In this document: piece by piece, positions 1,237-23,325 of the stretch
Numbering within the stretch: the first letter of the stretch is position 1
Layout: every line of letters starts with the position of its first letter
From: a virus
Taxonomy: Duplodnaviria > Heunggongvirae > Uroviricota > Caudoviricetes
Direction: 5' to 3' (one strand)
Length of the DNA stretch: 23,325 nt
IMG/VR virus record: IMGVR_UViG_2585427734_000005
Translations under genes and position numbers: made by a program
Notes under the pieces: model-generated
Database searches by the model: none
The model's input: only the letters and a program-made list of their open reading frames with translations
What the model was told of the DNA's origin: nothing

Positions 1237-1237
1237 A

Positions 1238-6909: not shown

Positions 6910-6919
6910 TTTGCGAATC

Positions 6920-7054: not shown

Positions 7055-7225
7055 CTTATCTCTCCCCTTAACGCCGGGTGGCGGAACTAACTGCTGCACT
7101 GCAAAATTTGAATCCCGCCGTCATGTTCTTACGCCTCGGGCTGGCTACTTAACCCCTGACCACTGCCTGGTAACTCGAAGTATTGCCCTGCATTCTGTGG
7201 GGCGGGGGGGGTTGGTATGAAAAGA

Positions 7226-7266
7226 AGGATACCCATAGGTATTTAAAAAGTAAATACCCATGGGTA
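7226..7266 (-). promoter_or_regulatory. Putative leftward early promoter (pL-like) overlapped by two operator-like dyads
   Basis: On the minus strand: -35 TTTACT (plus 7249-7254), 17-bp spacer, -10 TATCCT (plus 7226-7231). Overlapped by ATACCCATAGGTAT (7229-7242) and the perfect palindrome TACCCATGGGTA (7255-7266). Lies between the repressor 3' end and ydaG. Confidence 0.4.
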
Positions 7267-7308
7267 ACTTTTTGCGGTGTCTTAACTGGTGACTAGTTGT
7301 TTGGTGAG

Positions 7309-7728
7309 CTATGATGCGTTTTGTGCTTTCTTTTTACGGATTTCTTCGTAGATCATATTGTAATACTGTTTTTTCTCTTCAAGAGTTTTTAATAAGTTAT
7401 CCGCTTCACTTTCTGGCAGTTCGTCTAAGAGATCTAAAAAAATACGTTGTCGTGGCGTTAGAACCCTTGTTTCATAACTGGAGGCTGTGTTCGTTGATGA
7501 TGAAACGATACCATCCATCCATCCCCGGGGTAACCCAAAGGACTCTTCGATAATCTCCACCATATCATCAGCGATCCGTTTTTTTCCCTTTTTCCCCTCT
7601 GGGTACAACATTCTTGATACATAAGAAGGCTCGCGCCCGATCTTTCTGGCCACGTTAACCGCTTTACCATCGCATTTCTCATCACGAATTTTGATGAGTT
7701 GCTGTCGTCTAAATTCATATTTGTCCAT
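7309..7728 (-). CDS. Prophage repressor (RacR-like), 139 aa
   Basis: Minus-strand ORF divergent from the Cro-like gene. Position and orientation match racR in Rac, and the N-terminal segment (AVNVARKIGREPSYVSRM) looks like a helix-turn-helix. The ATG at 7726-7728 has no SD and sits about 7 nt after a TATTAT -10, suggesting a leaderless mRNA. Confidence 0.6.
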   Translation of the reverse strand: MDKYEFRRQQLIKIRDEKCDGKAVNVARKIGREPSYVSRMLYPEGKKGKKRIADDMVEIIEESFGLPRGWMDGIVSSSTNTASSYETRVLTPRQRIFLDLLDELPESEADNLLKTLEEKKQYYNMIYEEIRKKKAQNAS

Positions 7729-7757
7729 AGGTAAATAATAGATGCGATTACTGCAAG

Positions 7758-7828
7758 GTAAACAACCTGTGGGTATTGACTTTTGTTTACCTGTGGGTAT
7801 TCTTTGCTGTGTTTACTAAGGAGTAGCT
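7758..7828 (+). promoter_or_regulatory. Divergent promoter/operator region (pR-like rightward promoter; candidate leaderless repressor promoter on the opposite strand)
   Basis: Rightward: -35 TTGACT (7776-7781), 16-bp spacer, -10 TATTCT (7798-7803), SD AAGGAG (7818-7823), ATG 7829. Two copies of CCTGTGGGTAT (7766-7776, 7790-7800) overlap these elements. Leftward -10 TATTAT (plus 7735-7740) and -35 GTTTAC (plus 7758-7763) lie just left of this span. Confidence 0.45.
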
Positions 7829-8110
7829 ATGGAAGAATTAAGAATATTTCTCAATTCTCTTTCGTCAGATGAACAGCGTATGTTTGCATGCGAGTGTGGT
7901 ACCAGCATCGGTTATCTAAGAAAGGCATTGAGTAAAGGTCAAGTGTTAGGGGCATCGTTATGTGTCCTTATTGAGGGAGCCAGTAATGGTGAAGTTACAC
8001 GTCAGCAACTAAGGCCTTTTGATTGGATGAATATTTGGCCCGAGCTGGAAGATACCAAAATGTTAACACAACCACTTTCTAGGAGCTTGATTCATGAAAA
8101 TCAAGCATGA
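7829..8110 (+). CDS. Cro/YdaS-like small DNA-binding regulator, 93 aa
   Basis: ATG with AAGGAG SD, divergent from the repressor. The motif ...FACECGTSIGYLRKALSKG...RQQLRPFDW... resembles the YdaS/Cro-like family. Its 3' end overlaps the next gene. Confidence 0.6.
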   Translation: MEELRIFLNSLSSDEQRMFACECGTSIGYLRKALSKGQVLGASLCVLIEGASNGEVTRQQLRPFDWMNIWPELEDTKMLTQPLSRSLIHENQA

Positions 8111-8519
8111 ACACATCCGCATGGCGATGAATGCCTGGGCGCATCCGGACGGTGAAAAAGTTCCGGCAGCTGAAATAACCAGGGCTTATTTTGAACTGGG
8201 TATGACGTTCCCAGAACTGTATGACGACAGCCATCCGGAAGCCCTGGCTCGCAATACCCAGAAAATTTTCCGCTGGGTAGAGAAAGACACCCCTGATGCA
8301 GTTGAAAAAATTCAGGCGTTGTTACCAGCTATCGAAAAAGCAATGCCACCTCTGCTGGTGGCCCGAATGCGCAGCCATAGCTCAGCCTATTTTCGGGAAC
8401 TAGTGGAGACGCGGGAACGACTGGTGAGAGACGCTGATGATTTTGTCGCAGTGGCGATCGCTGGTTTCAACCAGATGAATCGTGGTGGCCCTGCAGGAAA
8501 TATTGTGGCTGTGCATTGA
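8094..8519 (+). CDS. YdaT-like protein (CII-like regulator or toxin domain family), 141 aa
   Basis: Starts MKIKHEHI..., as I recall for Rac YdaT, and has a similar length. The ATG at 8094 overlaps the upstream gene (AGGAGC SD at a 7-nt spacing). Confidence 0.6.
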   Translation: MKIKHEHIRMAMNAWAHPDGEKVPAAEITRAYFELGMTFPELYDDSHPEALARNTQKIFRWVEKDTPDAVEKIQALLPAIEKAMPPLLVARMRSHSSAYFRELVETRERLVRDADDFVAVAIAGFNQMNRGGPAGNIVAVH

Positions 8520-8590
8520 CTCGCAATATTCATACCGGATCACTTCCGGCAATTTGTGAGTAAAAAGATTCGGTATCAAAAGAGGTGAGT

Positions 8591-9661
8591 ATGGCTAACG
8601 CCTGGCTCAGATTATGGCATGACATGCCAAATGACCCTAAGTGGCGAACAATTGCCAGGGTGTCAGGACAGCCAATTGCAACAGTGATGGCAGTGTATAT
8701 CCACCTCCTGGTGAGCGCGTCACGAAATGTCACGCGAGGTCACATTGATGTCACGACAGAAGATTTGGCAAGTGCGCTCGACGTGACAGAAGAGGTAATT
8801 GATTCAATTTTGCAGACGATGCAGGGGCGGGGACTTGATGGTGATTTAATCACTGGATGGGAAAAACGCCAGGTGCTTAAAGAGGACAACGGCAATATTT
8901 CGCAAACCGCAAAATCTCCTGCAGAGCGCAAGAGGGCGCAGCGAGAGAGGGAAAGAAAGCGGGAACAAAATGGCGATTGTCACGGCGCGTCACGAAATGT
9001 CACGCACATGTCACGACGAGTCACGACAGATAAAGATACAGATAAAGATACAGATCAAGAAGATCAAAACACTATGGTCCATGGCGTAAAAAACGCCACG
9101 AACCAGGCAGGGGATGTTCAGACCGTCAATCTTGGTCAGCCAGCAGGCACGACACCGGAAGCCGATTCAGCGTATGCGCTGAAAGCCGATTCGGGCGCTG
9201 TGCAGCAGGTGATGACCGCAAGGGCGGAGCAATCACACCAACTGCAGCAGCCTGAAGCCGATTCCGCCATTCAGCGGGAAGCCGATCGGGTAGTCCCGGA
9301 AAACACCGGGCAGTCTGTGGGACGAGTGGATTATCCGGATGTGTTCGAACAGGTCTGGCGGGAGTACCCGTTGCGTGCTGGGGCAAACCCGAAGAAATCC
9401 GCTTTCAGTGCCTGGAAGGCCAGATTACGCGAGGGGGTGCCACCAGAGGCCATGCTGGATGGCGTGAGGCGTTACGCAAGATACTTGGCGGCTACCGGGA
9501 AAACGGGAACGGAATTTGTTCAGCGAGCGACGACGTTTTTTGGACCGGACCGGAATTTTGAGAACCCCTGGTTGCTCCCGGTAAGCGGCACGAACAACCA
9601 GCGTTGTGTGAATCATATTTCTGAACCGGATAACGAAATTCCGCCGGGCTTCAGGGGGTAA
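8591..9661 (+). CDS. Replisome organizer / replication initiator (lambda O-like, YdaU-like), 356 aa
   Basis: ATG at 8591 preceded by AAGAGGTGA. The N-terminus (MANAWLRLWHDMPNDPKWRTIARV) fits the phage replisome-organizer N-terminal pattern. The gene carries iteron arrays and an AT-rich tract that encode a low-complexity linker (SRNVT..., DKDTDKDTDQEDQ). Confidence 0.65.
   Translation: MANAWLRLWHDMPNDPKWRTIARVSGQPIATVMAVYIHLLVSASRNVTRGHIDVTTEDLASALDVTEEVIDSILQTMQGRGLDGDLITGWEKRQVLKEDNGNISQTAKSPAERKRAQRERERKREQNGDCHGASRNVTHMSRRVTTDKDTDKDTDQEDQNTMVHGVKNATNQAGDVQTVNLGQPAGTTPEADSAYALKADSGAVQQVMTARAEQSHQLQQPEADSAIQREADRVVPENTGQSVGRVDYPDVFEQVWREYPLRAGANPKKSAFSAWKARLREGVPPEAMLDGVRRYARYLAATGKTGTEFVQRATTFFGPDRNFENPWLLPVSGTNNQRCVNHISEPDNEIPPGFRG
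8719..8755. repeat. Iteron array 1: four GTCACR repeats at about 10-bp spacing
   Basis: GTCACG at 8719, 8729 and 8750 and GTCACA at 8739, inside the replisome-organizer ORF. Confidence 0.6.
8979..9072. repeat. Iteron array 2 (five GTCACG repeats at about 10-bp spacing) plus adjacent AT-rich tract: putative replication origin
   Basis: GTCACG at 8979, 8989, 8999, 9010 and 9020, followed by GATAAAGATACA x2 and an A/T-rich tract (9031-9072). This mirrors the iteron plus AT-rich layout of ori-lambda inside O. Confidence 0.55.
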
Positions 9662-9701
9662 GTGTTAATTTCTGGTCATGAGGTAATTTTCAGGAGGGCT
9701 T

Positions 9702-10124
9702 GTGGCAAAAGTTTTTACACAAGAAGAGCGGGAAAAAATTAAAGGGCAGGTTCTTGAACTCGTACGCCAGAGTGGGCGCGAGACGTTACGACAACTGGAA
9801 GCTAAAACTGGGGCAACAAGATATCTGATGAGCGTTCTGGCCAGAGAGCTGGTTGCCAGTGGCGATGTATACAATTCTGGCTACGGGTTATTCCCGTCTG
9901 AACAGGCTCGTAAAGACTGGCAAAATGCCCGCAAAAAATTATCGAGGGCAAAGCTGAAGAAACCGGTTGTGGTTGATCCGGACCTTATCTGGTCATTACC
10001 TGACGGAGAAATACGTCGCTACGACAGTCGCCTAAACATAATCTGTCGCGAGTGCCGGAAGAGCGAAGTTATGCAGCGCATATTGTCGTTTTATCAGGGG
10101 GATGTTCGGTATTTATTGAAGTGA
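9702..10124 (+). CDS. Hypothetical phage protein, 140 aa (possible DNA-binding protein)
   Basis: ORF starting at GTG 9702, 4 nt after AGGAGG (9692-9697). Basic and Cys-containing (CRECRK) C-terminal region. No homolog recognised from memory. Confidence 0.45.
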   Translation: MAKVFTQEEREKIKGQVLELVRQSGRETLRQLEAKTGATRYLMSVLARELVASGDVYNSGYGLFPSEQARKDWQNARKKLSRAKLKKPVVVDPDLIWSLPDGEIRRYDSRLNIICRECRKSEVMQRILSFYQGDVRYLLK

Positions 10125-10192
10125 CGAGATTAAAGTGCATTAGTTCAGATGCAAATTGACATTTTGTGGCACAGGGTAGAGCTAGCGTGGTT

Positions 10193-10218
10193 GTCCGCTT
10201 TGTGCCAAGAGCAGACGC
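10193..10218. repeat. Hairpin repeat copy A (GTCCGCT-N10-AGCAGAC)
   Basis: 7-bp stem with one mismatch and a 10-nt loop TTGTGCCAAG, in the intergenic region upstream of the BCCT transporter gene. One of three related copies. Confidence 0.5.
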
Positions 10219-10458
10219 TGGTAATTCGTGCCTAATATACTTCACTTAACTTATATCCCAGCTTTGATACAGATCATACAAATTAAATGCCCCAGTAATT
10301 GGCAGGCTGAGTAACTTAAAACTCCTTAGAATATAGGATGATTTGTATCGGCACTCATTCCACCATGCATTCCGATTAACCCCGCATAGCCAGTTGAACT
10401 TTGCTACTCTGTGAGAGGTAGTACCTTCTATCCAGTGCGGATTTAATTAATGGAATAA

Positions 10459-12462
10459 ATGATTATGAGTGAAAATGATACAACCCCAAAGAAGTCTACA
10501 AGCCAGATTAACAAAGCGGTATTCTTTACATCTGCTTTGCTAATTTTCCTTCTTGTCGCCTTTGCCGCCGTATTCCCGGATGTCGCCGACAAAAATTTTA
10601 AACTACTTCAGCAACAAATCTTCACGAATGCCAGCTGGTTCTACATACTTGCTGTGGCCCTGATTTTACTGAGCGTCACGTTCCTTGGACTCTCACGTTA
10701 CGGTGATATAAAGCTGGGCCCAGACCATGCGCAGCCTGATTTCAGCTACCACTCCTGGTTCGCGATGCTTTTTTCGGCAGGGATGGGGATCGGCCTGATG
10801 TTCTTTGGCGTTGCCGAACCTGTGATGCATTATCTTTCGCCACCTGTCGGCACTCCAGAGACCGTTGCGGCAGCGAAGGAAGCCATGCGCCTGACGTTCT
10901 TCCACTGGGGTCTGCACGCATGGGCAATTTATGCCATCGTGGCGCTGATTCTGGCCTTTTTCAGTTACCGTCACGGTCTGCCTTTAACGCTGCGTTCTGC
11001 GCTCTATCCCATTATCGGCGATCGCATTTACGGGCCTATAGGCCACGCGGTTGATATCTTCGCCGTGATAGGCACTGTCTTTGGCGTTGCAACATCGCTG
11101 GGTTACGGTGTATTGCAGGTGAATGCCGGTTTGAACCATCTTTTCGGCGTGCCCATCAATGAAACGGTACAGGTCATTTTGATCGTGGTCATCACGGGGT
11201 TAGCGACGATTTCGGTGGTGTCCGGCCTGGACAAGGGAATACGCATCCTGTCTGAGCTTAATCTGGGCCTGGCGGTGTTGCTCCTGGCGCTGGTCTTGTG
11301 CCTGGGTCCCACTGTGCTTCTGCTGAAGTCATTTGTGGAAAATACGGGTGGTTATTTGTCGGAACTGGTGAGTAAAACGTTCAACCTTTACGCGTATGAA
11401 CCCAAGTCGAGCAACTGGCTGGGGGGCTGGACATTATTATACTGGGGATGGTGGCTTTCATGGTCGCCGTTTGTAGGTATGTTCATTGCACGCGTTTCCC
11501 GCGGCAGGACAATTCGTGAGTTCGTGACTGGCGTGTTGTTTGTTCCCGCCGGCTTTACGCTCATGTGGATGACGGTGTTTGGAAACAGCGCCATCTATCT
11601 CATCATGAACCAGGGCGCCACTGACCTCGCCAATACCGTTCAGCAGGATGTTGCGCTTGCCCTGTTTAATTTCCTGGAGCATTTCCCGTTCTCTTCCGTG
11701 CTGTCATTCATTGCAATGGCGATGGTCATCGTCTTCTTTGTAACGTCTGCTGATTCGGGGGCAATGGTTGTGGATACTCTGGCATCAGGTGGGGTGGCAA
11801 ACACGCCCGTCTGGCAGCGAATTTTCTGGGCATCGCTCATGGGCGTTGTTGCTATTGCCCTGCTGATCGCAGGGGGGCTGAGTGCGTTGCAAACCGTAAC
11901 GATAGCGAGTGCATTGCCCTTCTCAGTTATCTTATTAATATCCATATACGGACTGTTAAAAGCCCTGCGTCGGGATTTGACCAAGCGTGAAAGCCTTAGC
12001 ATGGCGACTATTGCTCCTACGGCTGCACGTAACCCAATTCCCTGGCAGAGAAGGTTACGCAATATCGCGTATTTGCCGAAGCGCTCTCTTGTGAAACGTT
12101 TTATGGACGACATTATCCACCCCGCCATGACGCTGGTTCAGGAGGAACTTAACAAGCAGGGAACGATAAGCCACATCAGTGACGCCGCCGAGGATCGTAT
12201 TCGCCTTGAAGTCGATTTGGGCAACGAGCTGAATTATATATATGAAGTGAGGCTTCGCGGGTATAACTCACCGACCTTCGCGCTCGCTGCGCTGGATAAT
12301 GATGAGCAGCAGAGTGAACAACATCGATATTATCGCGCTGAAGTCTATCTCAAAGAGGGCGGCCAAAATTATGATGTAATGGGCTGGAATCAGGAACAGC
12401 TGATTAATGACATACTGGACCAGTACGAAAAACACCTGCACTTCCTGCATCTGGTTCGTTAA
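10459..12462 (+). CDS. betU: BCCT-family osmolyte transporter (BetT/BetU-like), 667 aa
   Basis: Strong similarity throughout to E. coli BetT as recalled (for example WxxWWxxWSPFVGMFIARVSRGRTIREF, SADSG, ...DILDQYEKHLHFLHL). The 667-aa length and position in a Rac-like prophage suggest the BetU variant; the gene symbol is less certain than the family call. Confidence 0.85.
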   Translation: MIMSENDTTPKKSTSQINKAVFFTSALLIFLLVAFAAVFPDVADKNFKLLQQQIFTNASWFYILAVALILLSVTFLGLSRYGDIKLGPDHAQPDFSYHSWFAMLFSAGMGIGLMFFGVAEPVMHYLSPPVGTPETVAAAKEAMRLTFFHWGLHAWAIYAIVALILAFFSYRHGLPLTLRSALYPIIGDRIYGPIGHAVDIFAVIGTVFGVATSLGYGVLQVNAGLNHLFGVPINETVQVILIVVITGLATISVVSGLDKGIRILSELNLGLAVLLLALVLCLGPTVLLLKSFVENTGGYLSELVSKTFNLYAYEPKSSNWLGGWTLLYWGWWLSWSPFVGMFIARVSRGRTIREFVTGVLFVPAGFTLMWMTVFGNSAIYLIMNQGATDLANTVQQDVALALFNFLEHFPFSSVLSFIAMAMVIVFFVTSADSGAMVVDTLASGGVANTPVWQRIFWASLMGVVAIALLIAGGLSALQTVTIASALPFSVILLISIYGLLKALRRDLTKRESLSMATIAPTAARNPIPWQRRLRNIAYLPKRSLVKRFMDDIIHPAMTLVQEELNKQGTISHISDAAEDRIRLEVDLGNELNYIYEVRLRGYNSPTFALAALDNDEQQSEQHRYYRAEVYLKEGGQNYDVMGWNQEQLINDILDQYEKHLHFLHLVR

Positions 12463-12469
12463 CAGCAAC

Positions 12470-12498
12470 ATGCCGCCACAGAGGCGGCATTTATTTAT
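12470..12498 (+). terminator. Rho-independent terminator downstream of the BCCT transporter gene
   Basis: Perfect 8-bp stem ATGCCGCC/GGCGGCAT with loop ACAGA, followed by TTATTTAT, 8 nt after the stop codon. Confidence 0.6.
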
Positions 12499-12525
12499 CC
12501 CGGCTGCAATATGAGGGAATGCAGA

Positions 12526-13803
12526 ATGATTTCACGCTGGAAATGGATGCTGAAGCAGACATTTAAAAAACTATGGTTCAGGGCAACGTTATTCGCAATT
12601 GTCGCAATAATAACGGCCCTTTTATCAATTCTTTTTAAATCAATGATACCTGAGTCGGTTTCCGTGAAGGTTGGTGCGGAAGCAGTCGATAACATTCTGA
12701 ACATACTGGCATCGAGTATGCTGGCAGTGACCACATTTTCGCTGAGCATCATGGTCACAGCCTACGGTTCAGCCACTACTAATGTGACTCCCAGAGCTAC
12801 TCGTTTAGTTGTTGAAGACGTCACCACACAAAATGTACTGGCCACCTTCATCGGTTCTTTTCTCTTCAGTCTGGTAGGGATTATTGCTCTCAATATGGGA
12901 GCTTATGGAGAAAGGGGGAGAGTCATTTTATTCATTGTAACACTGGTTGTCATTGCCTTAATCCTCATCACATTGCTTCGCTGGATACAGCATTTGACCT
13001 CTCTGGGGAGGGTTGGTGAGACAACGGCAAAAGTAGAACAGGCGGCCATCGAAACATTTATTGCGAGAGCAAGAAATCCCTGTCTCGGCGGATATCCATG
13101 GCTTGAGAACAATGAACAGCCGAAAGGAACGGTTGCAGTTTATCCGAAAAAGATTGGCTATGTTGAATATGTTGATATGGTGAAACTCAGCAAGCTGCTG
13201 ACCAATGATCCCCGTCATGTATACCTCGTGGCGCAGCCGGGCAGTTTCATACATCCGTCCACGCCAGTTTTGTACCTGAGTCAGGGCCAGGAGTCATCAA
13301 TCAGCACCGATTTACTTGAGACGATTATTGTCTCGGATGTACGTTCATTTGCTCAGGACCCCCGATTTTGTCTTAGCGTCATGGCCGAAATAGCCTGCCG
13401 AGCCCTTTCCCCCGCAGTGAACGATCCTGGAACCGCCATTGATGTCATTGGCAGAGGTGTACGTATACTTTCCGCTTACGCGCAGAATAAATCTGATGAA
13501 ATAGAAGTGAAATATCCTTCTGTACATGTTGCACCACTTCAGAATAACGATCTACTTGAAGACTTTTTCTCACCTGTTGCGCGCGATGGTGCCAGTATGA
13601 GGGAAATTCAGATAAGGGTACTTAAAGGACTGTCGATGCTGAGTAAGGGTTGGCCTGGAATTTTTGCTGAAGCCGCACAAACCCTAGCATTTGAAACATT
13701 AGAGCATGCTACTCGTGCTGACCATATAGATTCTGACAGATATCTAATAAAATCAATTTATTATAATTTATTTAGTGGCGAAGATTCTAATAAAAAACCA
13801 TAG
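12526..13803 (+). CDS. Hypothetical membrane protein, 425 aa (N-terminal transmembrane segments plus large soluble domain; possibly DUF2254-like)
   Basis: ATG at 12526 preceded by GAGGGAA at a 6-nt spacing (an alternative ATG at 12511 has no SD). Hydrophobic N-terminal half and a long C-terminal domain. The family assignment is a tentative recollection. Confidence 0.6.
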   Translation: MISRWKWMLKQTFKKLWFRATLFAIVAIITALLSILFKSMIPESVSVKVGAEAVDNILNILASSMLAVTTFSLSIMVTAYGSATTNVTPRATRLVVEDVTTQNVLATFIGSFLFSLVGIIALNMGAYGERGRVILFIVTLVVIALILITLLRWIQHLTSLGRVGETTAKVEQAAIETFIARARNPCLGGYPWLENNEQPKGTVAVYPKKIGYVEYVDMVKLSKLLTNDPRHVYLVAQPGSFIHPSTPVLYLSQGQESSISTDLLETIIVSDVRSFAQDPRFCLSVMAEIACRALSPAVNDPGTAIDVIGRGVRILSAYAQNKSDEIEVKYPSVHVAPLQNNDLLEDFFSPVARDGASMREIQIRVLKGLSMLSKGWPGIFAEAAQTLAFETLEHATRADHIDSDRYLIKSIYYNLFSGEDSNKKP

Positions 13804-13863
13804 TTGCGGAGCAAGCGATACGGTTGTTGGCAAGTCAAGGGCAAAGCATTCGCGTGAGAGTGG

Positions 13864-13889
13864 GCGTCTGCTTTGTGCCAGAAGCGGAC
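13864..13889. repeat. Hairpin repeat copy B (GCGTCTGCT-N10-AGCGGAC)
   Basis: 7-bp stem with one G-U-compatible mismatch and loop TTGTGCCAGA (nearly identical to the copy A loop), between the convergent membrane-protein and LysR genes. Confidence 0.5.
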
Positions 13890-13933
13890 ATACGTAACTT
13901 ATGATACGCATCGCCAATCATCCGTTTCAAACA

Positions 13934-14815
13934 TCAACGCGGAAACGTTTTAAGAATGTAATCCCGAACATAGGCGGTTCGGCTGTTATTAGCCGTCCTT
14001 TTGTTCCAGACCAGATAAAGATGATTAGTCGGAGCGAGGTCTGCAGGTGTCACTGAAATCAGGCGACCACTTTTCAGGTCATTGTCACAGTGATAATCCG
14101 GCAGCACTGTCCACCCGTGGCCGTCACAGACCAAGTCGCGGATAATACGTAAATCCGGAATGGTGAATGTAGCCTGCATCTCAGGGGCTCTCTGAAACAT
14201 GGAGGCCCAGAGCGCTCTAATCAGTGGCAACTCTTCGTCATAAGCAATCAGCGGTAATGAGGCAAGCGTTTCAGCACCAGGTTCTGATCCGATGATCTCT
14301 GACATGGCGGGAGCATGAACAAGGAGCATGCGTTCAGTCAGTAGATGTGCATAGCCGTACAGACGGTCATCAGGCATAGATGTGGTAACAGCGAGATCGG
14401 CGCTCCCGTCATGCAAAAGGGAATAAATACGTTGCTTATTGCCGGTATGAAAGCGTAGGCGATACCCCTCCTTCATTAGTGGAGCCATTACTGTCCCAAG
14501 CCGGGAATGAATAAAATCTGGCGGTCCTGCCAGATTAATTGTTCCCCCGCGTACAGAGCCTGACCGGAAAGAGGACAGCTTTTCTTCCAGACCATCAATG
14601 AAGGGTGAAACTGAGCGGGCAAGCTCATCCGCAGCTTCGGTTGCCGTCACGCCTCTGGCCTGCCTGATAAACAGACGCTTACCAACCAGAGTCTCAAGAG
14701 ACTGGATATGCTGTGACGCCGCGGGCTGAGTGATGCCCAGTAGTTCTGCCGCCTTTGAAAAGGAGCCAGAGCGATAGGCCTCAAGAAACGTTCGCAGATG
14801 GCTCAGATGGCTCAT
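13934..14815 (-). CDS. LysR-family transcriptional regulator, 293 aa
   Basis: N-terminal HTH typical of LysR-type regulators (MSHLSHLRTFLEAYRSGSFSKAAELLGITQPAASQHIQSLE) with a C-terminal substrate-binding-like domain. The ATG overlaps the upstream gene's stop (ATGA). Confidence 0.9.
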   Translation of the reverse strand: MSHLSHLRTFLEAYRSGSFSKAAELLGITQPAASQHIQSLETLVGKRLFIRQARGVTATEAADELARSVSPFIDGLEEKLSSFRSGSVRGGTINLAGPPDFIHSRLGTVMAPLMKEGYRLRFHTGNKQRIYSLLHDGSADLAVTTSMPDDRLYGYAHLLTERMLLVHAPAMSEIIGSEPGAETLASLPLIAYDEELPLIRALWASMFQRAPEMQATFTIPDLRIIRDLVCDGHGWTVLPDYHCDNDLKSGRLISVTPADLAPTNHLYLVWNKRTANNSRTAYVRDYILKTFPR

Positions 14816-15504
14816 AGTGAAGCGCCTCGCTGATGAAGTTTATCGTTACAGGGAGCCTCATGCAGAGCAAGGGCCAGTTCACTCACGTAATCATCCCGTA
14901 TTCCCAACGCACCCAGAGTGGCCTGCAGTTTCCATACATAATCTGCATTCGTGCCAATGTCTCCACGGGCAGATGCGATGCTCAACGCTACGGTCGCTGT
15001 AAGATTGTCCTGTTCATAATGCGGATGCAGTCTGTCTGATACGAAAGCCAGCGCCTGAATTTCCTCACCGTTTCCTAGCGAAACGTCTGCCCAGACCGGA
15101 CGGTAAAGACCGGTTATCATCTCGCGCGTCCAGACAATTTCCAGCTCATTAATAAGAGTCGATTCCGGCAGTCTGAACGCAATACCTTCGGTAATTCCAC
15201 CTTCGTCGAGCGATAACATCCTGCCGGGGACATCAGGAGTCGCTCGTCCGGATATCAAACGAATGCAGAAACTGCGCTGCCATCCTTTCAGACGGGCCCG
15301 TTGCATTTCTTCAATCGCCAGCACGGGATTCCACATCAATGACCCGTAGGCAAATATCCAGACAGGAGCACCCGTCGGGCGCTCCTCCAGAGTAGAGTTC
15401 ATTGATGCGCGTATTTTTTCAGCGTCCCAGAGCATATTCGCCGGGAGCAGCGCTTCATGCACCCTGACAAATGTGCCATTAAGCATATTTTCACGGGTAA
15501 GCAT
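14812..15504 (-). CDS. ChaC-like gamma-glutamylcyclotransferase family protein, 230 aa
   Basis: Contains the ChaC/GGCT hallmark VWIFAYGSLMWNP and overall similarity to E. coli ChaC as recalled. GGGAGGT SD upstream of the ATG at 15502-15504. Confidence 0.85.
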   Translation of the reverse strand: MLTRENMLNGTFVRVHEALLPANMLWDAEKIRASMNSTLEERPTGAPVWIFAYGSLMWNPVLAIEEMQRARLKGWQRSFCIRLISGRATPDVPGRMLSLDEGGITEGIAFRLPESTLINELEIVWTREMITGLYRPVWADVSLGNGEEIQALAFVSDRLHPHYEQDNLTATVALSIASARGDIGTNADYVWKLQATLGALGIRDDYVSELALALHEAPCNDKLHQRGASL

Positions 15505-15515
15505 ATAACCTCCCT

Positions 15516-16716
15516 TTACTGGCCTACGATTTTAACCTGTTGAAATTTACGACTGTGGCTGCGACGGATTTGTGCAAGCAGCAACAGCAGGCCGAGCAGA
15601 GAAACAATCGCACCGCTGATACCGGTATACACGATACCGGCGTGGCTTATAGTAATGCTGCCCAGTACTGATCCCAGCGCTATACCTGAGTTGAAGCCCG
15701 CAATATTCAGGCCGGCAGCAACACCATGCGCATGAGGAGCATGTTGCTCAGCGACACCAATCAGACGGGCCTGCAGTGCCGGCACTGCGGCAAATGTCAC
15801 CATACCCAGCAGCGCAACCACAATGCCCATGCTCACCGGTGAGGATGACAGCAGCCACATACCAAGCACGACAACAACAATGCCGCTAATGATGAGTATA
15901 TTGGCACGATTAACCCCCATGCTGTCGGTAAGTTTCCCACCAAGAATATTACCTACCGCAGCTGTAATACCGTAAACCAGCATAAACAGACTCACCGTTG
16001 CTCCGGTAACCCCTGTCACCTGCGTCAGAATAGGTGCGATAAAGGTGTAAGCCGTAAACGAGCCTGCATACGCCAGCACCGTAACCAGCGCGCCGGCCAG
16101 CAACTTACGGTTAAACAGCATGCCGATATTCTGCATTGCTGAGTCACTATGTTCACCGGGCACGCTGCGTACGGGATCTTTCATACCGAACAACAGTCCA
16201 AGGAATCCGAACGCGCCAAAAGCGGCAATAGCGCCGAGAACTGGACGCCATGAGACCCCCCCCCCCCAACCATGTACTCAGCGGTACGCCGATTGCCATC
16301 GCCAGAGTAAAGCCACCAAATACCACAGCCACCGCTCTGCCTGCTTTACCCGGTCCAGCAAGACGAGCTGCGGTACTGGATGCCGCAGCCAGAAACAGGC
16401 CGTGTCCCAGACCAGCAATGAACCGCGCTAACAGGAGCTGAGGTAATGTGGCTGCAAACGCGGCCGCCAGACTACCGGCAGTAAACACAACGGCAGTTGT
16501 AAGCATTACATTTTTCCGGCTCCAGCTTGCTGTCAGCGCAGACAGTACGGGTGCCGCGAACGTTGCCCCCAGTGCATAGGTTGTAACCGCTGCCCCGGTC
16601 TGCTCCACACCCACACACAACCCCTGAGCCATAACGTCTGTCAGCCCAATGGGGACAAATTCCGCGAGTCCGAGCGCAAAGGCACTGATAGTAAACACAT
16701 AAATAACAAATGGCAT
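15516..16716 (-). pseudogene. MFS transporter (DHA1/YdhP-AraJ-like), split into two ORFs by a frameshift at a C12/G12 homopolymer
   Basis: N-terminal ORF 16153-16716 (AGGAG SD, 12 nt after a TM-rich start MPFVIYVFTISAFALGLAEF...) and C-terminal ORF 15516-16193 are both MFS-like with multiple TM helices. The frames switch at the 12-C run at 16256-16267. Confidence 0.8.
16256..16267. repeat. Homopolymeric tract C12 (G12 on the coding strand) at the MFS frameshift site
   Basis: Twelve consecutive C residues counted directly in the sequence. Confidence 0.9.
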
Positions 16717-16932
16717 GACTGGCTCCTGATTTAAGTAAGGAGTGCAGTCTGATTTAGAAAAACAGATAAATAAAATAATGTAAACTTCAGGCGGGATAAA
16801 ATTATTTATATCTAAGGCAAAGATTCAATATTCCCACAGCACACAGAAGTTTTCTGTCTTCAGGGAGAGGAGCTTCGAAAGTTCAGACGAAAAATTCCTG
16901 CGGCCCCTTTAAGAGTCAGTTGGCCGGGTTTG

Positions 16933-16956
16933 GTCCGCTCCTCGCTCAAAGCGGAC
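16933..16956. repeat. Hairpin repeat copy C (GTCCGCT-N10-AGCGGAC)
   Basis: Perfect 7-bp inverted repeat with a 10-nt loop CCTCGCTCAA, in the intergenic region between the MFS start and the hok locus. Confidence 0.5.
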
Positions 16957-17135
16957 TAGAAGGTTAGCTTGCGTCGGACTTGGCGTATTTAAAGAAGTGC
17001 TGGTGGTGACTGGTTGTTGTGTTCCATTTCTACAGAACAAAATCACAGAAACTATACCCAATAGTTATATTGAATCAATGATGAGACAGCCTCATATTTA
17101 TCAGAACTGGTGTACGTCCAATACAGGAGGTTGTC

Positions 17136-17225
17136 GTGCTGGTTCTCAAATGTGCGCTAGCTATTGCGGCTGTAATGGCAATTTATTGTCTTGCTGTTGT
17201 TCTTATGGATCGCCTTTCTGATTGA
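17136..17225 (+). CDS. Candidate small hydrophobic peptide, 29 aa (MLVLKCALAIAAVMAIYCLAVVLMDRLSD)
   Basis: GTG start 5 nt downstream of a GGAGG SD (17126-17130). Single predicted TM helix with a charged C-terminus. It overlaps, in another frame, the Cys-rich 74-aa ORF from the track, which has no SD. Confidence 0.3.
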   Translation: MLVLKCALAIAAVMAIYCLAVVLMDRLSD

Positions 17226-17309
17226 TTTTATATTGGCGAGGTGACGGGAGTTAAGTAGAATTGCTGCGGGTGCTTGAGGCTATCTGCCTCAGGCATGAAC
17301 ACCAAAGGC

Positions 17310-17388
17310 AGATAGAGAAAAGCCCCAGTTAACATTACGCGTCCTGCAAGACGCTTAACATTAATCTGAGGCTCAATCTATGAACGGC
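17310..17388 (-). ncRNA. Putative Sok-like antisense RNA of the hok locus
   Basis: Minus-strand promoter: -35 TTGCCT (plus 17418-17423), 17-bp spacer, -10 TAACCT (plus 17395-17400), same layout as the R1 Sok promoter as recalled. The transcript would be antisense to the hok leader and end at a GCGTC/GACGC hairpin followed by a U-rich run. Boundaries are approximate. Confidence 0.35.
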
Positions 17389-17436
17389 AAATCTAGGTTA
17401 GCCTCTTACGTGCCGAAAGGCAAGGAGAAGCAGGCT

Positions 17437-17592
17437 ATGAAGCAGCAAAAGGCGATGTTAATCGCCCTGATCGTCATCTGTTTAACCGTTATAGTGACGG
17501 TACTGGTAACGAGGAAAGACCTCTGCGAGGTACGAATCCGAACCGACCAGACGGAGGTCGCTGTCTTCACAGCTTACGAACTTGGGGAGTAA
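17437..17592 (+). CDS. hokD: Hok-family type I toxin (HokD/RelF-like), 51 aa
   Basis: MKQQKAMLIALIVICLTVIVTVLVTRKDLCEVRIRTDQTEVAVFTAYELGE is near-identical to HokD/RelF as recalled. AAGGAG SD at 17422-17427, an upstream in-frame mok-like ORF from 17380, and a 3' hairpin GCGGGGA-GAAA-TCCCCGC (17601-17618). Confidence 0.8.
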   Translation: MKQQKAMLIALIVICLTVIVTVLVTRKDLCEVRIRTDQTEVAVFTAYELGE

Positions 17593-18055
17593 GAGGACCA
17601 GCGGGGAGAAATCCCCGCAACCTCTGATGTATTATGCATCCTCAACGCAGCCACAGTTAACCTGATTGGCGGGGTTACTTCATCTGTAAATATTTTTTTA
17701 AAAATAATGCCCACGCACAGCATAAAACAAAAAGTATTACAGATAAAAAAGGAACGTAATGTGCAGATTTGTTGTTTTCCATATTTACTCACCTTAATAT
17801 GATTAACCCTGATAGGGTTGTTATTTCAGCGGTTTTCAAATGAGATATTATGGTGATCTGACAAATTTGCATAACATTAAAATTTAATTTGTTTAACCGC
17901 TTTTAATAATAAGCGTTGTTTGTATCCCAGCAATCTGTTGTTTGGTTTTTATTCCATTAAGGTGGGGGCTTTACACTGGAACCAGTTTATTTATACTTTA
18001 TACGTCAGCCTGAACAACTGGCATCTGCTGCACTGCGCCATCGAGAGATTGAGAA

Positions 18056-18655
18056 ATGGCGCATATACAACTGGTCAAACAAACTTCTTCTGGTTTACTT
18101 CTCCCGGCGACGCCGGAGAGTTGCGATTTTCTGCATCAAATCAAAATAGGTGAGTGGATACACGTAGACTTTAAGCGTGTGCGTAACTACGCATTCCACA
18201 AGCGTTTTTTCAAACTCCTGCAACTGGGATTCGATTACTGGACTCCGGTCGGTGGGGCGATCACGCCTCGCGAACGAGAACTGCTGTCTGGTTTCGTTGA
18301 TTACCTGTGCGAATCAGTTGGTCGGGAACACACGCCAGCCCTGAGTGATGCCGCAGAGCAATACCTTAACACCGTTGCGACTCGTAGAACCCGGGATACG
18401 GCGTTGCTAAAGTCGTTTGAGGCTTTCCGCGAGTGGGTAACCATTCAGGCCGGATTTTACACCGAGCATATTTATCCGGACGGTAGCCGTGGGCGTCGGG
18501 CAAAATCCATCGCTTTTGCGAATATGGACGAAGTCGAGTTTCAGCAGGTTTATAAATCTGTACTGAATGTGCTGTGGAACTGGATTCTGTTCCGTAAATT
18601 CTCCTCTCAGGAGGAAGTTGAAAATGTGGCCGCACAACTACTGGAGTTTGCGTAA
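18056..18655 (+). CDS. Phage protein (DUF1367-like; position equivalent to Qin ydfU N-terminal part), 199 aa
   Basis: ORF with ATG at 18056, translationally coupled to the next gene (TAATG at 18653-18657). The family call comes from recalled gene order in lambdoid prophages (DUF1367, YbcO, Q) and is not confirmed by sequence. Confidence 0.5.
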   Translation: MAHIQLVKQTSSGLLLPATPESCDFLHQIKIGEWIHVDFKRVRNYAFHKRFFKLLQLGFDYWTPVGGAITPRERELLSGFVDYLCESVGREHTPALSDAAEQYLNTVATRRTRDTALLKSFEAFREWVTIQAGFYTEHIYPDGSRGRRAKSIAFANMDEVEFQQVYKSVLNVLWNWILFRKFSSQEEVENVAAQLLEFA

Positions 18656-19122
18656 TGGTGAATTTACGTAAAGCGGCTAAAGGCCAGATGTGCCAGATCA
18701 GAATCCCTGGCTACTGCAATCACAATCCCGAAACCTCTGTGCTGGCGCATTACAGGCTGGCGGGGACGTGCGGAACAGCGACAAAACCACACGATATGCA
18801 GGCGGCGATAGCCTGTAGCTCATGCCACGATCTAATCGACGGGCGGGTAAAAACCAGCGATTACACCAAAGAAGAATTGCGCCTGATGCATGCTGAAGGG
18901 GTTTTCGCACACAAGAAATCTGGAGAAAGAAAGGTCATTTATGATTTACCCAACGAATACAGGAAAAAGCGGAGAACACCTTCGCCTCACCACGCTGGAA
19001 AGTGTCTGGATTCAGGGAAAACTACGTATGTGGGGGCGCTGGTCGTATATTGGCGGTGGCAGGTCAGGGAATATGTTCAATCAGTTGTTGGCATCCAAAA
19101 AACTGACGAAAACAGCCATTAA
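18655..19122 (+). CDS. YbcO-like protein (DUF1364, Cys-rich putative nuclease), 155 aa ORF, about 60 aa longer than typical YbcO
   Basis: N-terminal 95 aa (MVNLRKAAKGQMCQIRIPGYCNHNPETSVLAHYRLAGTCGTATKPHDMQAAIACSSCHDLIDGR...) resembles DLP12 YbcO as recalled. The ORF then continues and overlaps the next gene by about 180 nt. Confidence 0.55.
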   Translation: MVNLRKAAKGQMCQIRIPGYCNHNPETSVLAHYRLAGTCGTATKPHDMQAAIACSSCHDLIDGRVKTSDYTKEELRLMHAEGVFAHKKSGERKVIYDLPNEYRKKRRTPSPHHAGKCLDSGKTTYVGALVVYWRWQVREYVQSVVGIQKTDENSH

Positions 19123-19483
19123 TGAAGCCCTGCGCAGAATGAAAAAAGCGGGAATAGAGAAAGCTGAGCTGGAAGCGTTTTTGCGAGAGATGATCAACGG
19201 CAAGCAAAAGAGCTGGCTGGCGCATTGTACTGATGCAGAGGCGTTATGTATTGATCGAGTCATAAGTGAGGTGCTGGCAGAGCATCCAGGATTGATTTGC
19301 ATTCTCCGGCAACGCTATGAAGGGCGGGGGATGACTAAGCGCAAAATGGCTGAATTGCTAAATGATGCACACCCAGAGTGGTGTTTTAGCACATGCGAAA
19401 AACGGATTGCTAATTGGTTAGCTGTTGCTGAGTATGCCCTATATATTCCCATGCGTGAATCATTTGCTGAGAAAATGGCTTGA
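18941..19483 (+). CDS. Putative late-gene antiterminator (Q-like), about 180 aa
   Basis: Positioned directly upstream of the terminator and the moron/lysis region. It has a ...LESVW...WGRWSY... segment reminiscent of the LERWGAW motif of Q21/QuuD-type antiterminators. The start is uncertain (ATG 18941 with a weak SD; the ORF opens at 18890). Confidence 0.45.
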   Translation: MIYPTNTGKSGEHLRLTTLESVWIQGKLRMWGRWSYIGGGRSGNMFNQLLASKKLTKTAINEALRRMKKAGIEKAELEAFLREMINGKQKSWLAHCTDAEALCIDRVISEVLAEHPGLICILRQRYEGRGMTKRKMAELLNDAHPEWCFSTCEKRIANWLAVAEYALYIPMRESFAEKMA

Positions 19484-19563
19484 TTTCTTACGTATAAACT
19501 GCTTCAATTTTGCTATGCTTCGTAAAGCTGTATCGCGAGGCGGATTGCAGACATGGACATCGT

Positions 19564-19590
19564 AAAAAAACCGCTTAATGCGGTTTTTTT
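19564..19590. terminator. Intrinsic (bidirectional) terminator downstream of the Q-like gene
   Basis: AAAAAAACCGC-TTAAT-GCGGTTTTTTT: GC stem flanked by an A7 run on one side and a T7 run on the other. Confidence 0.7.
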
Positions 19591-20527
19591 ACGTCAGGAA
19601 AGCAGGGGAGAATGCTGCTAGTTGGGCAACTGGTCTTTCTGCTCCAAATTATAACAGAGACCAGTTATAGTTTCGGTGCTGTGTTTTTTTTACAATATTG
19701 TGATAACACATTGCTGGCGGGAGTTTTGATATTTCTTGGCAGGGGCTGATGATGCGTTATCCTGATGTCGTCAACTCATATAAAATGAGATGAGAGATCA
19801 TTGCAGGGTGGTTTGTAATTCGCTGTTTAGCGGGACAATATGTTGTCTGATACAAGACACCCGACGCCTCAGATTACTATAATAAAGATGAAGCATCCTT
19901 TGTATTGACCAACCACCTGTTTAGGCGGTTCTTTTTGGGCTGGTTTATTGTATGCAAAATGATTATTAAAAAGGTTGTGTTAATAACAAAATCCGAAATA
20001 ATATGCCTGCATATTTTTATCTTGCTTATATTCTGCATATTGTGCATAGCAGGCTCATCCCTGCAATCAAAACTGTATGATGAGTATTTTTTGTTTTCCT
20101 TTTTTCCAGTCATCTGATGATGACCTGCTTCTTTTTAATCCGGATCGACATCAGTTTTTTAAGATAATTCCTGCGAGTTATATGCATAAATGCCACAAAC
20201 TCCGCATTTTATGTGGTTGGGAGTTGCCGGGCGCGCAGTGAGTTTGCTAAGAAAACTCCTGCATGGTGAATCCCCCTGTGCGGTGGGGTGATACCATTAA
20301 CCTTTTCTGTCGCCGACAGGTATCACGAACATTTTGTTCACCGGGAGGCACCCGGCACCATGCACTTCAATAGATTCTCTCCACATTATGGATATTCTTT
20401 CAGAATATCCCACGCAGACTTTGTGTAAATGTTAACAAATGTGCGTTTTATTTGATCTGATTCGCTGTTTGAGCGTCCAAAACAACGGTATATATAATCC
20501 TTTACTATATGACATATGTGAGGAAAA

Positions 20528-20956: not shown

Positions 20957-21106
20957 TATTTATTGTTTTGTAATAAACGGTTTCGGCTTAGGTTTGTTCT
21001 GACACAGCTACGGCACTGAGCTAAATTTAGCGGATAGTCAGCTCTGAGCCAGTGGCGGACGTAACAACTACTATTGCTGAGATTTTAATGGATTGAGGAG
21101 CAAGAA

Positions 21107-21969: not shown

Positions 21970-22466
21970 TGCCTCCATCATTACGAAAAGTCGTTGCTGC
22001 TGCTATTGGTGGCGGAGCAATTGCTATAGCATCAGTGTTAATCACTGGCCCAAGTGGTAACGATGGTCTGGAAGGTGTCAGCTACATACCATACAAAGAT
22101 ATTGTTGGTGTATGGACTGTATGTCACGGGCATACAGGAAAAGACATCATGCTCGGTAAAACGTATACCAAAGCAGAATGCAAAACACTCTTGAATAAAG
22201 ACCTTGCCACGGTCGCCAGACAAATTAACCCGTACATCAAAGTCGATATACCGGAAACAACGCGCGGCGCTCTTTACTCATTCGTTTACAACGTGGGTGC
22301 TGGCAATTTCAGAACATCGACGCTTCTTCGCAAAATAAACCAGGGCGATATCAAAGGCGCATGTGATCAGCTACGTCGCTGGACATATGCTGGCGGTAAG
22401 CAATGGAAAGGTCTCATGACTCGTCGTGAGATTGAGCGTGAAATCTGTTTGTGGGGTCAGCAATGA
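21969..22466 (+). CDS. SAR endolysin (phage 21 R21-type lysozyme, glycoside hydrolase family 24), 165 aa
   Basis: N-terminal signal-anchor-release segment ([18 protein letters not shown]) followed by a T4-lysozyme-like domain; near-identical to R21/RrrD as recalled. Confidence 0.9.
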
Positions 22467-22927
22467 ACAGAGTAACCGCGATTATCTCCGCTCTGGTTAT
22501 CTGCATCGTCGTCTGCCTGTCATGGGGTGTTAATCATTACCGTGATAACGCCATCGCCTACAAAGAACAGCGCGACAAAAATGCCAGAGAACTGAAGCTG
22601 GCGAACGCGGCAATTACTGACATGCAGATGCGTCAGCGTGATGTTGCTGCGCTCGATGCAAAATACACGAAGGAGTTAGCTGATGCGAAAGCTGAAAATG
22701 ATGTTCTGCGTGATGATGTTGCCGCTGGTCGTCGTCGGTTGCACATCAAAGCAGTCTGTCAGTCAGTGCGTGAAGCCACCACCGCCTCCGGCGTGGATAA
22801 TGCAGCCTCCCCCCGACTGGCAGACACCGCTGAACGGGATTATTTCCCCCTCCGGGAACGACTGGTAATGATGCAGGCCCAACTTGAAGGTGCTCAGCAA
22901 TACATAACCGAGCAGTGTTTAAAGTAA
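22463..22927 (+). CDS. Rz (inner-membrane spanin), 154 aa
   Basis: ATG overlaps the endolysin stop (ATGA). N-terminal TM segment followed by a coiled-coil-like periplasmic domain; matches RzpD/RzpQ-type Rz as recalled. Confidence 0.9.
22683..22868 (+). CDS. Rz1 (outer-membrane lipoprotein spanin), 61 aa, embedded in the +1 frame of Rz
   Basis: Lipobox VVGC and a proline-rich mature region ([22 protein letters not shown]), fully nested within Rz. Confidence 0.85.
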
Positions 22928-23037
22928 AATCTTAACTACAATATGATTCATTTTGATGATTGTTTCATAAGGAACAGTGAAGTAAGATCTAAGAGGAGTT
23001 AAATTTTATACAGTATAATCATAATATTGCAGCAAGT

Positions 23038-23325
23038 AGACTGGCCCCATGAATCTCCAGACAACCAATATCACTTAAATAAGTGATAGTCTTAATACTA
23101 GTTTTTAGACTAGTCATTGGAGAGCAGATGATTGATGTCTTAGGACCGGAGAAACGCAGACGGCGTACTACACAGGAAAAGATCGCTATTGTTCAGCAGA
23201 GTTTTGAACCGGGAATGACGGTCTCCCTTGTTGCCCGGCAACACGGTGTGGCAGCCAGCCAGTTATTTCTCTGGCGCAAGCAATACCAGGAGGGAAGTCT
23301 TACTGCTGTGGCCGCAGGAGAGCAG
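23038..23325 (+). mobile_element. IS2 insertion sequence, left end (continues beyond the window)
   Basis: Sequence from TAGACTGGCCCC... matches the IS2 left terminal inverted repeat as recalled, followed about 90 bp later by the insC start. Confidence 0.85.
23128..23325 (+). CDS. insC: IS2 transposase OrfA (InsC), N-terminal 66 codons (partial at window edge)
   Basis: [66 protein letters not shown] matches IS2 InsC. GGAGAGC SD upstream. Truncated by the window end. Confidence 0.9.

Follow-up and report, generated by a model that had tools for sequence, protein, structure and literature searches.

Hairpin-bounded accessory cassettes in a Rac-type prophage: betU and its neighbours were probably joined by recombination in hairpin loops

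The DNA analyzed here, in what follows the window, comprises 23,325 nt of the IMG/VR record IMGVR_UViG_2585427734_000005 (Caudoviricetes) and is, judged by its gene content, a Rac-type lambdoid prophage. Positions 1–7219 are 99.6–99.8% identical to the Rac prophage of Escherichia coli K-12, save for a 400-bp deletion in recE, and the early-left genes intR-xisR-ralR-recT-recE-racC-kilR-sieB are near-identical to those of K-12 Rac. In four near-identical prophages (MB19, SW071610, NT1F31, and ET665) the element lies between ttcA and uspF/ompN; the window itself begins at the intR stop codon, and the integration site at ttcA was read from these near-identical genomes only. Between the DUF977 gene and sok/hokD the window holds an island of two gene groups (Table 1), the transporter gene betU with a DUF2254 gene on one strand, and on the other a major facilitator superfamily (MFS) transporter gene, a ChaC-like gamma-glutamylcyclotransferase (GGCT) gene, and a LysR-family regulator gene. 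The GC content of the betU group is 0.48 and that of the second group 0.52, with 0.445–0.458 in the phage backbone. A preliminary description of the sequence had taken these genes for non-phage cargo inside a prophage, and this was borne out. We give practically no credence to the opposite reading, that they are ordinary core chromosome with the prophage merely beside them: no support for it was found, and it is refuted, as DUF977 lies on the left, sok/hokD, DUF1367, Q-like, and lysis genes lie on the right, and the prophage ends at ttcA and near uspF in the sister genomes. Moreover, of 5,426 complete E. coli genomes only 297 have the full 6.6-kb island, which is also present in a Qin-site prophage of O169:H41.

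Table 1. Features of the window, with hairpins first, then the genes and signals of the island, then the phage backbone.
Feature	Position	Strand	Remarks
Hairpin H1	10193-10216	+	GTCCGC/TTTGTGCCAAGA/GCAGAC; left end of the betU cassette; hybrid
Hairpin H2	13866-13889	+	GTCTGC/TTTGTGCCAGAA/GCGGAC; between the two cassettes; hybrid
Hairpin H3	16933-16956	-	GTCCGC/TCCTCGCTCAAA/GCGGAC; right end of cassette B and of the slot; inverted, variant loop
Hairpin H4	21037-21060		GTCAGC/TCTGAGCCAGTG/GCGGAC; between the two TolA-like genes
Cassette-borne upstream region of betU	10217..10464	+	Presumed promoter and 5' untranslated region
betU	10465..12462 (open reading frame opens at 10459)	+	BCCT-family glycine betaine/proline betaine transporter; 665 aa from the annotated start
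Intrinsic-terminator-like hairpin	12470..12490	+	ATGCCGCC-ACAGA-GGCGGCAT, then a T-rich tail
DUF2254 membrane protein	12526..13803 (open reading frame from 12511)	+	Pfam PF10011, 310 bits; 425 aa from the annotated ATG
LysR-family regulator	13934..14815	-	Pfam HTH_1 and LysR_substrate
ChaC-like GGCT	14812..15504	-	PF04752, 122.3 bits (cutoff 21)
MFS transporter, Cmx/AraJ-like, DHA1 type	15516..16716	-	Pseudogene; Pfam MFS_1 at 15516-16193 and 16153-16716
DUF977 gene	9702..10124	+	Pfam PF06163; last conserved gene of the replication module, with the variable slot following
sok antisense RNA and hokD toxin	17268..17592	+	Rfam RF01794, 111.7 bits; hokD annotated in sister genomes; first backbone genes right of the slot
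Rz/Rz1 and spacer	22451..23036	+	Precedes trkG in sister prophages and K-12
Start of an IS3-family (IS2-like) element	23037..23325	+	From translation, alignment, and RefSeq naming in H31/H36
Left of the island			intR (1-1236), xis, ralR, recT, recE, racC, kilR, sieB, immunity region, YdaT-like, 358-aa "replisome organizer", DUF977
Right of the island			sok/hokD, DUF1367, YbcO/DUF1364-like, Q-like, two TolA-C-terminal-domain genes, lysis S, R, Rz/Rz1

The assignment of the transporter to a BetU-like BCCT protein, as first proposed, was confirmed. Its product matched Pfam PF02028 over the full profile (positions 1–485 of 485, 661.7 bits) and TIGR00842 with 542.7 bits (cutoff 407.55), and residues 321–330, GWTLLYWGWW, form the tryptophan-rich signature of transmembrane segment 8 (TM8) of the BCCT family, for which we take the PROSITE pattern to be [GSDN]-W-T-[LIVM]-x-[FY]-W-x-W-W. 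Relatives in the PDB were 8ybq (E=7e-193, residues 6–665), BetP (2wit, E=2e-97), and CaiT (E=6e-49). With 97.9% amino acid identity to the fec-linked allele in UPEC132 and TL-14, the transporter is almost certainly the already known BetU. The NCBIfam model NF007399 (BetT, a "subfamily" model) scored 751.7 bits (cutoff 695), the equivalog model NF047988 (betaine_BCCT) scored 593.5, below its cutoff of 650, and PGAP labels some copies "choline BCCT transporter BetT"; since the name BetT rests on a subfamily-level model, it is not evidence for choline transport. BetU was reportedly first found in pyelonephritis isolates, and is said to transport glycine betaine and proline betaine, not choline, and to be osmoprotective. 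It is referred to as a glycine betaine/proline betaine uptake system in PMC3139670 and as a betaine importer in PMC13300293, both citing Ly et al. (2004, J Bacteriol 186:296). At 97.9–99.8% identity the BetU of the window would be expected to work as the described protein does, and we infer with good support that it gives the lysogen an additional osmoprotectant uptake route, taking up glycine betaine and proline betaine at high osmolality.

The gene betU was found in 1,959 of the 5,426 E. coli genomes. The window copy resembles the BetU of uropathogenic E. coli (UPEC) in being a BCCT protein of 665 aa present in only some E. coli strains; unlike the common fec-linked allele, however, it is a second allele, 93% identical in DNA, and lies in a prophage slot. 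While 407 records were at least 99% identical to the window copy, 1,554 represented the fec-linked allele (~93% DNA identity), which lies beside fecABCDE among insertion sequence (IS) elements (IS600, IS911, IS30) in UPEC and many other strains.

The ends of both gene groups are marked by members of a family of 24-bp palindromes with the consensus GTCCGC-TTTGTGCCANNA-GCGGAC, often followed by TTGCT. The consensus was derived from IMG/VR hits; single-position differences occur among the copies in the window, and the loop of H3 is a variant. Four members were found in the window, compared to 0.36 expected from shuffled sequences. In UTI89, the homology of an island-free lambdoid prophage to the window ends at 10216 and resumes at 16942, inside the loop of H3, which places the true limits of the foreign DNA at 10217–16941/16956; between the matching flanks the UTI89 prophage has two unrelated genes. 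Its empty site is a perfect palindrome (GTCCGC/TTTGTGCCAATA/GCGGAC), and family copies lie in this prophage (locus L006) at 6069–6092 and 8285–8308.

The arms of the hairpins suggest how the betU group was joined to the backbone. The left arm of H1 is that of the backbone and its right arm that of the cassette, and the right arm of H2 is again that of the backbone. The inner arms GCAGACG (H1) and CGTCTGC (H2) are exact complements of each other, and the outer arms equal those of the empty site. DNA folding yielded -9.3 kcal/mol (z -4.4) for the UTI89 empty site and -11.5 kcal/mol (z -3.9) for a reconstructed junction of the left half of H2 and the right half of H1; the actual H1 reached -2.9 kcal/mol (z +0.6), the actual H2 -5.2 kcal/mol (z -0.8), and H3 -7.2 kcal/mol (z -2.4). 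Swapping the halves therefore restores two strong hairpins, the pattern expected of reciprocal recombination with the crossover in the loop. The predicted junction of a cassette circle would be GTGAGAGTGGGCGTCTGCTTTGTGCCAAGAGCAGACGCTGGTAATTCG (...GGGCGTCTGCTTTGTGCCAAGAGCAGACGCTGG...), and the restored empty site would read GTGGTTGTCCGCTTTGTGCCA..AGCGGACA.

The same boundaries were found outside the window. Plasmid copies of betU end at 13891, and on a Klebsiella pneumoniae IncF plasmid the second gene group is 92.3% identical over exactly 13892–16957, with the same hairpin types at both ends. The betU group has three to four left flanks (the DUF977 backbone, relB-ydfV on plasmid pPO125, a Raoultella/Klebsiella type, and Citrobacter braakii) and six different right flanks, and every junction lies inside a hairpin. 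On the IMG/VR contig L176, H1-betU-DUF2254-H2 is followed by a different 2.2-kb cassette and then by H3, and on contig L162 three hairpins (at 983, 2392, and 3939), 1.4–1.5 kb apart, separate single accessory gene units, one cassette encoding a TIR-like protein (recognized by eye only) and the other a GNAT-like protein. One copy was also found in the K-12 Qin prophage, just upstream of the relBE promoter (locus L216, 15982–16005).

Taken together, we consider it likely that the slot of this Rac-type prophage holds two hairpin-bounded cassettes, one with betU and one with the MFS-GGCT-LysR genes, that trkG is separate from it, and that the island was assembled by hairpin recombination. Cassette A (~10217–13865) comprises betU with its own upstream region and terminator, plus the DUF2254 gene, and cassette B (~13890–16932) the MFS-GGCT-LysR genes, here crippled by a frameshift that affects the MFS gene. 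Most likely, the pieces of the island were joined within the loops of the hairpins, with the crossover in the conserved loop sequence. The simplest explanation would be short-homology recombination by phage recombinases such as RecET, which is encoded in the prophage and disrupted in the window copy; a site-specific recombinase is a second candidate. Phage single-strand-annealing recombinases are described in PMC2327257 as acting on short or diverged homology, and the shuffling by PeSL elements in T4-type phages offers a parallel (PMC2839356).

Alternatively, the hairpins could be regulatory or terminator-like and unrelated to movement, the island having arrived by IS-mediated or illegitimate recombination and the match at the boundaries being a by-product. 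Short intergenic palindromes are common, IS600, IS911, and IS30 lie around the fec-linked betU, an ISEsa1 fragment adjoins the island in MB19 and ET665, and the betU-bearing element Tn6062 was described as a composite transposon (PMC3139670). Nevertheless, we regard this as quite improbable, because in the window neither cassette has an IS sequence next to it, hairpin loops contain three independent boundaries, with the arms reciprocally swapped, and the same boundaries occur in four genera and three replicon types. In addition, a scan for promoters and terminators found neither at H1–H3, whose loops of 10–12 nt show no T-run, and did not class the hairpins as terminators.

Several candidate identities of the hairpin were rejected. 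Inspection against consensus sequences spoke against a sigma-54 promoter, a LexA or CRP box, nut/boxB, and a REP element, and likewise gix/hix, dif/cer, and attC. The right arm CAATAGCGGACA resembles the terminal repeat of IS600 partially and in some copies only, a likeness that we regard as coincidental. Nor does a simple transposon model with duplication of a 9-bp target hold, as independent insertions all show one and the same "duplication" sequence. No description of the family was found in Rfam or in the literature searched, to which our access was limited, where searches for a lambdoid hotspot with palindromes gave nothing relevant either; a literature search with the hairpin string returned unrelated primers only.

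A dedicated trans-acting site-specific system, similar to an integron integrase or Xer/dif, might also act on the hairpins and move the cassettes as circles, a possibility that we hold to be unlikely. The geometry fits a core-type site of 26 bp (12-2-12 or 10-6-10) in which inverted arms surround a conserved centre. The hybrids appear to be reciprocal and their folding agrees with this, and the same cassettes occur in phage, plasmid, and chromosome, always cut in the loop; the three sites on contig L162, each separating single accessory units, point in the same direction. However, the arms vary at central positions, inspection showed no similarity to attC core sites, dif/cer, or gix/hix, and the outer hairpins of the slot are mutually inverted, which would lead to inversion, not excision.

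Two negative results count against the site-specific alternative and against assembly by hairpin recombination alike: no circular or tandem cassette junction was found in the 5,426 E. coli genomes or in IMG/VR, and no candidate recombinase co-occurs with, or is linked to, the cassettes. Other points also weigh against the favoured reading. In other hairpin copies the stems are often imperfectly complementary, which fits frequent crossovers in the loop and equally a motif with another function, and ordinary homologous recombination within the backbone genes on either side is another way in which slot cargo can be exchanged. No E. coli prophage with cassette B and without cassette A was found that would indicate the order of acquisition. 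As to function, the promoter scan detected no sigma-70-like promoter upstream of betU on the plus strand, the substrate specificity and osmotic activation of BetU come from second-hand literature, and the role proposed for cassette B comes from family membership.

The preliminary description had placed the island where K-12 Rac carries trkG, in a slot thought to capture osmoregulatory transporters preferentially and repeatedly. BetU and TrkG both contribute to osmoadaptation and both belong to the same prophage lineage, and in K-12 trkG follows ydaW within at most 500 bp. Synteny nevertheless refutes this model, to which we leave a very small chance: each of the four Rac-type carriers examined has both the island and trkG, at separate positions, with trkG directly after Rz and 6–10 kb further downstream. 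The window and K-12 Rac match only at 1–7219 and 22483–23036, and 7220–22482 has no match. In an alignment of K-12, the window, and SW071610, the K-12 homology begins 32 nt into Rz and extends to the start of trkG, and no BLASTP match was obtained between K-12 YdaW and the DUF977 protein, though their genes hold the same position. K-12 Rac therefore has another replication module plus a deletion. By this comparison, the ydaW-rzpR junction of K-12 is a deletion endpoint inside Rz that fuses ydaW to an Rz remnant (rzpR) and brings ydaW close to trkG; the equivalent slot does not exist in K-12 Rac as aligned here, and trkG is, on the same alignment, a second, separate cargo gene of the lineage, whose actual slot lies after Rz. 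Like the island, trkG is foreign transporter cargo, with a role in K+ uptake and osmoadaptation; unlike it, trkG sits after Rz before the packaging genes, and no family hairpin flanks it. In the window, the IS3-family element breaks the trkG-side homology ~29 bp before the position of the trkG ATG in the relatives; if trkG follows beyond the window, the element at 23037–23325 could alter its expression.

The immunity and replication module of the window is a mosaic replacement. Positions 7220–10124 encode a 139-aa repressor, a Cro-like protein, a YdaT-like protein, a 358-aa replisome organizer, and the DUF977 protein; this module is unrelated to that of K-12 Rac, and the K-12-type racR-ydaS-ydaT-ydaU-ydaV-ydaW module is absent from the window. 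It is protein-identical to the module of the O169:H41 Qin-site prophage (ynfC/rspB...ydfJ), in which the island is present and iss, not trkG, follows Rz. As the immunity/replication module is common to both, the island appears to travel with the module rather than with Rac as such.

The slot between the DUF977 gene and sok/hokD-nin is, by comparison of its occupants, a general accessory hotspot. The DUF977 gene precedes it in ~25 IMG/VR contigs and in phage mEp460, and in these contigs and mEp460 at least 12 unrelated cargos follow the same DUF977 flank and hairpin. PADLOC and Pfam identified among them a CBASS cyclase with a 2TM effector, Tmn, PD-T7-1, PDC-S15, PDC-S39, an AbiH-like protein, and NUDIX and HAD hydrolases; a HEPN/RES N-terminal domain gave a weak match below the cutoff. 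The idea of repeated recruitment of osmoregulatory transporters did not hold, as the at least 12 other prophages carry mostly anti-phage defence genes or uncharacterized genes without known function, and none carries such a transporter.

Upstream of betU, a leader of roughly 330 bp had been proposed as a site of osmoregulated control. The gap between the DUF977 stop codon (10124) and the betU start indeed measures 334–340 bp, but it is not a single regulatory unit, as it contains the cassette junction: 10125–10192 is phage backbone, 10193–10216 the junction hairpin, and 10217–10458 travels with betU. For this last part, conservation is 90–94% in Citrobacter and Raoultella as well as in the fec-linked allele of E. 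coli. Conserved upstream DNA begins at 10197 in C. braakii, 10221 in Raoultella, and 10192 in the plasmids, and in the fec-linked allele the upstream region is cut at 10356 by IS600. An Rfam scan of 9600–18100 found sok only, and nothing in the betU leader or at the hairpins. The terminator ascribed to betU is present, as a hairpin with a T-run right after the stop codon. In Serratia and Cedecea, betU orthologues (93–94% amino acid identity) share only the gene and the terminator with the window, and have neither hairpins nor a DUF2254 gene; the cassette form therefore seems to be a derived, mobile version. A supposed abutment of the C. braakii cassette on a tRNA gene was discarded, as ARAGORN found no tRNA.

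The adjacent membrane protein proved to belong to DUF2254, with four N-terminal transmembrane segments (estimated) and a soluble domain of ~265 aa. No sequence relative was found in the PDB, and an AlphaFold2 model (pLDDT 78.8) gave no informative fold match. The gene is missing or truncated beside betU in C. braakii, Raoultella, and UPEC132, so BetU probably does not need it. The pair is present on ~70 plasmids, 99.8% identical (3,700 bp) over exactly 10192–13891. Both genes are the two CDSs of Tn6062 (Ins1056) on IncHI1 PST6 plasmids of Salmonella Typhi, and cloned together they allowed growth of S. Typhi in 0.8 M NaCl (PMC3139670). Tn6062 thus carries the same betU and membrane-protein genes as the window; in contrast to it, the window cassette is adjoined by the DUF977 gene and cassette B, with no flanking IS copies. 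On the IncY plasmid pPO125 an inverted relB-ydfV fragment (3497–4023), 99.2% identical to lambdoid prophage DNA (MB19 Rac 30427–29901), lies left of the betU cassette and is joined to it inside the hairpin. This suggests that the plasmid copy, and with it the Tn6062-type betU copies, derives from prophage DNA; possibly they arose through inversion between oppositely oriented hairpins.

Cassette B agrees in part with the minus-strand cluster of the preliminary description. All three genes are present, but the MFS transporter is one gene split into two open reading frames by a frameshift, and of the overlapping start and stop codons reported only those of the GGCT/LysR pair exist (ATGA at 14812–14815), the MFS and GGCT genes being 11 nt apart. 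The 4-nt overlap of the LysR gene with the upstream GGCT gene suggests translational coupling. The LysR-family regulator had no equivalog-level NCBIfam match, and the GGCT, classed by family match, showed weak PDB similarity to human CHAC2 (glutathione-specific GGCT 2, E=5e-8). The +1 frameshift of the MFS gene lies in a homopolymer at 16256–16267 (C12 on the plus strand), in which an A-to-C change in the window makes the C run uninterrupted. The tract differs in length between otherwise near-identical prophages, with totals of 10, 11, 11, 12, 12, and 13 in six loci, and only 11 is in frame; the gene is intact in copies with a total of 11, whereas RefSeq marks a frameshift in sister genomes. 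This variation could reflect on/off switching by slipped-strand mispairing, or errors in sequencing the homopolymer. Intact MFS proteins of 394–399 aa are encoded on the K. pneumoniae plasmid (L209), in E. coli ET665, and in O169:H41. From the protein families, cassette B probably handles a gamma-glutamyl compound, by export or uptake together with cleavage, and is controlled by the LysR regulator.

The remaining parts of the prophage show further changes. At ~4238–4241 in recE (open reading frames 2787–4172 and 4109–4984) the 400-bp internal deletion, relative to K-12 and MB19, has 4 bp of junction microhomology; exonuclease VIII is frameshifted, and recT is intact. The YbcO/DUF1364-like gene (18655–19122) is a 155-aa open reading frame here, is annotated as frameshifted in MB19 and SW071610, and is intact (291 bp) in NT1F31 and ET665, another sign of decay of the prophage copy. 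MB19 and ET665 hold an extra 3.3 kb (MB19 Rac 27315–30614) between cassette B and hokD, at window positions 17423–17438, consisting of the ISEsa1 fragment, ydfW, flxA, ydfV, and relBE and missing from the window; the 16-bp overlap at this junction suggests short-homology deletion or insertion. Two cargo genes with TolA C-terminal domains (20528–20956 and 21107–21502), separated by H4, have the Q-like gene on one side and the lysis cassette on the other, where Stx phages carry their stx genes. Their products may hinder phage or colicin entry that relies on Tol.

In itself the island contributes little: BetU is a characterized transporter that about one third of E. coli genomes encode, and cargo slots in prophages are familiar. 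The comparison indicates, however, that a single prophage lineage carries trkG and betU as cargo independently of each other, that K-12 Rac, as a deletion derivative, gives a misleading picture of its layout, and that the plasmid-borne betU pair, linked to the success of the IncHI1 PST6 typhoid plasmids, is flanked by DNA of prophage origin. Of moderate interest, and the part worth following, is the arrangement of cassettes between palindromes, with no prior description found in the accessible literature. Tentatively, and with the chances rather against it, the 24-bp palindromes may be recombination sites of a cassette-exchange system in temperate enterobacterial phages, with an integron-like logic and no linked integrase. 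Single accessory units (defence genes, relBE, TolA-like genes, betU, the GGCT module) would then move between lambdoid prophages, plasmids, and chromosomes by crossovers in the loop, which would explain both the loading of the DUF977-hok hotspot and the arrival of betU on Tn6062-carrying plasmids. If they are real recombination sites, the palindromes would make it possible to trace in the sequence how accessory and defence genes enter lambdoid prophages and are exchanged there, and would provide a simple marker for cassette boundaries in prophage hotspots.

The resemblance to integron cassettes is one of logic only: both are promoter-poor gene units with imperfect palindromes and hybrid junction sites. 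The window hairpins are far shorter than attC, with no attI and no GTTRRRY, which we take to be the R''/R' core consensus, and the only integrase is intR. The hotspots of P2/P4 phages (PMC9122126) and those of an E. coli pangenome screen (bioRxiv 10.1101/2022.05.12.491691) likewise occupy a fixed position between conserved phage genes and hold many alternative cargos, largely for defence; flanking palindromes are not mentioned in these two reports. In contrast to these, the one described here is lambdoid, extends from DUF977 to hok/nin, and in the window holds metabolic and transport cargo. A further comparison is with the PeSL cassettes of T4-type phages, in which short conserved stem-loops flank non-essential genes in hyperplastic regions; recombination between the stem-loops reshuffles modules, and mini-circles can result (Arbiol et al., 2010, PMC2839356). 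While PeSLs combine a strong early promoter with a terminator stem-loop in lytic T4-type phages, the window hairpins are 24-bp palindromes with a conserved loop and no promoter or terminator signature found, they belong to temperate lambdoid prophages, and the cassettes that they bound are also carried on plasmids and chromosomes.

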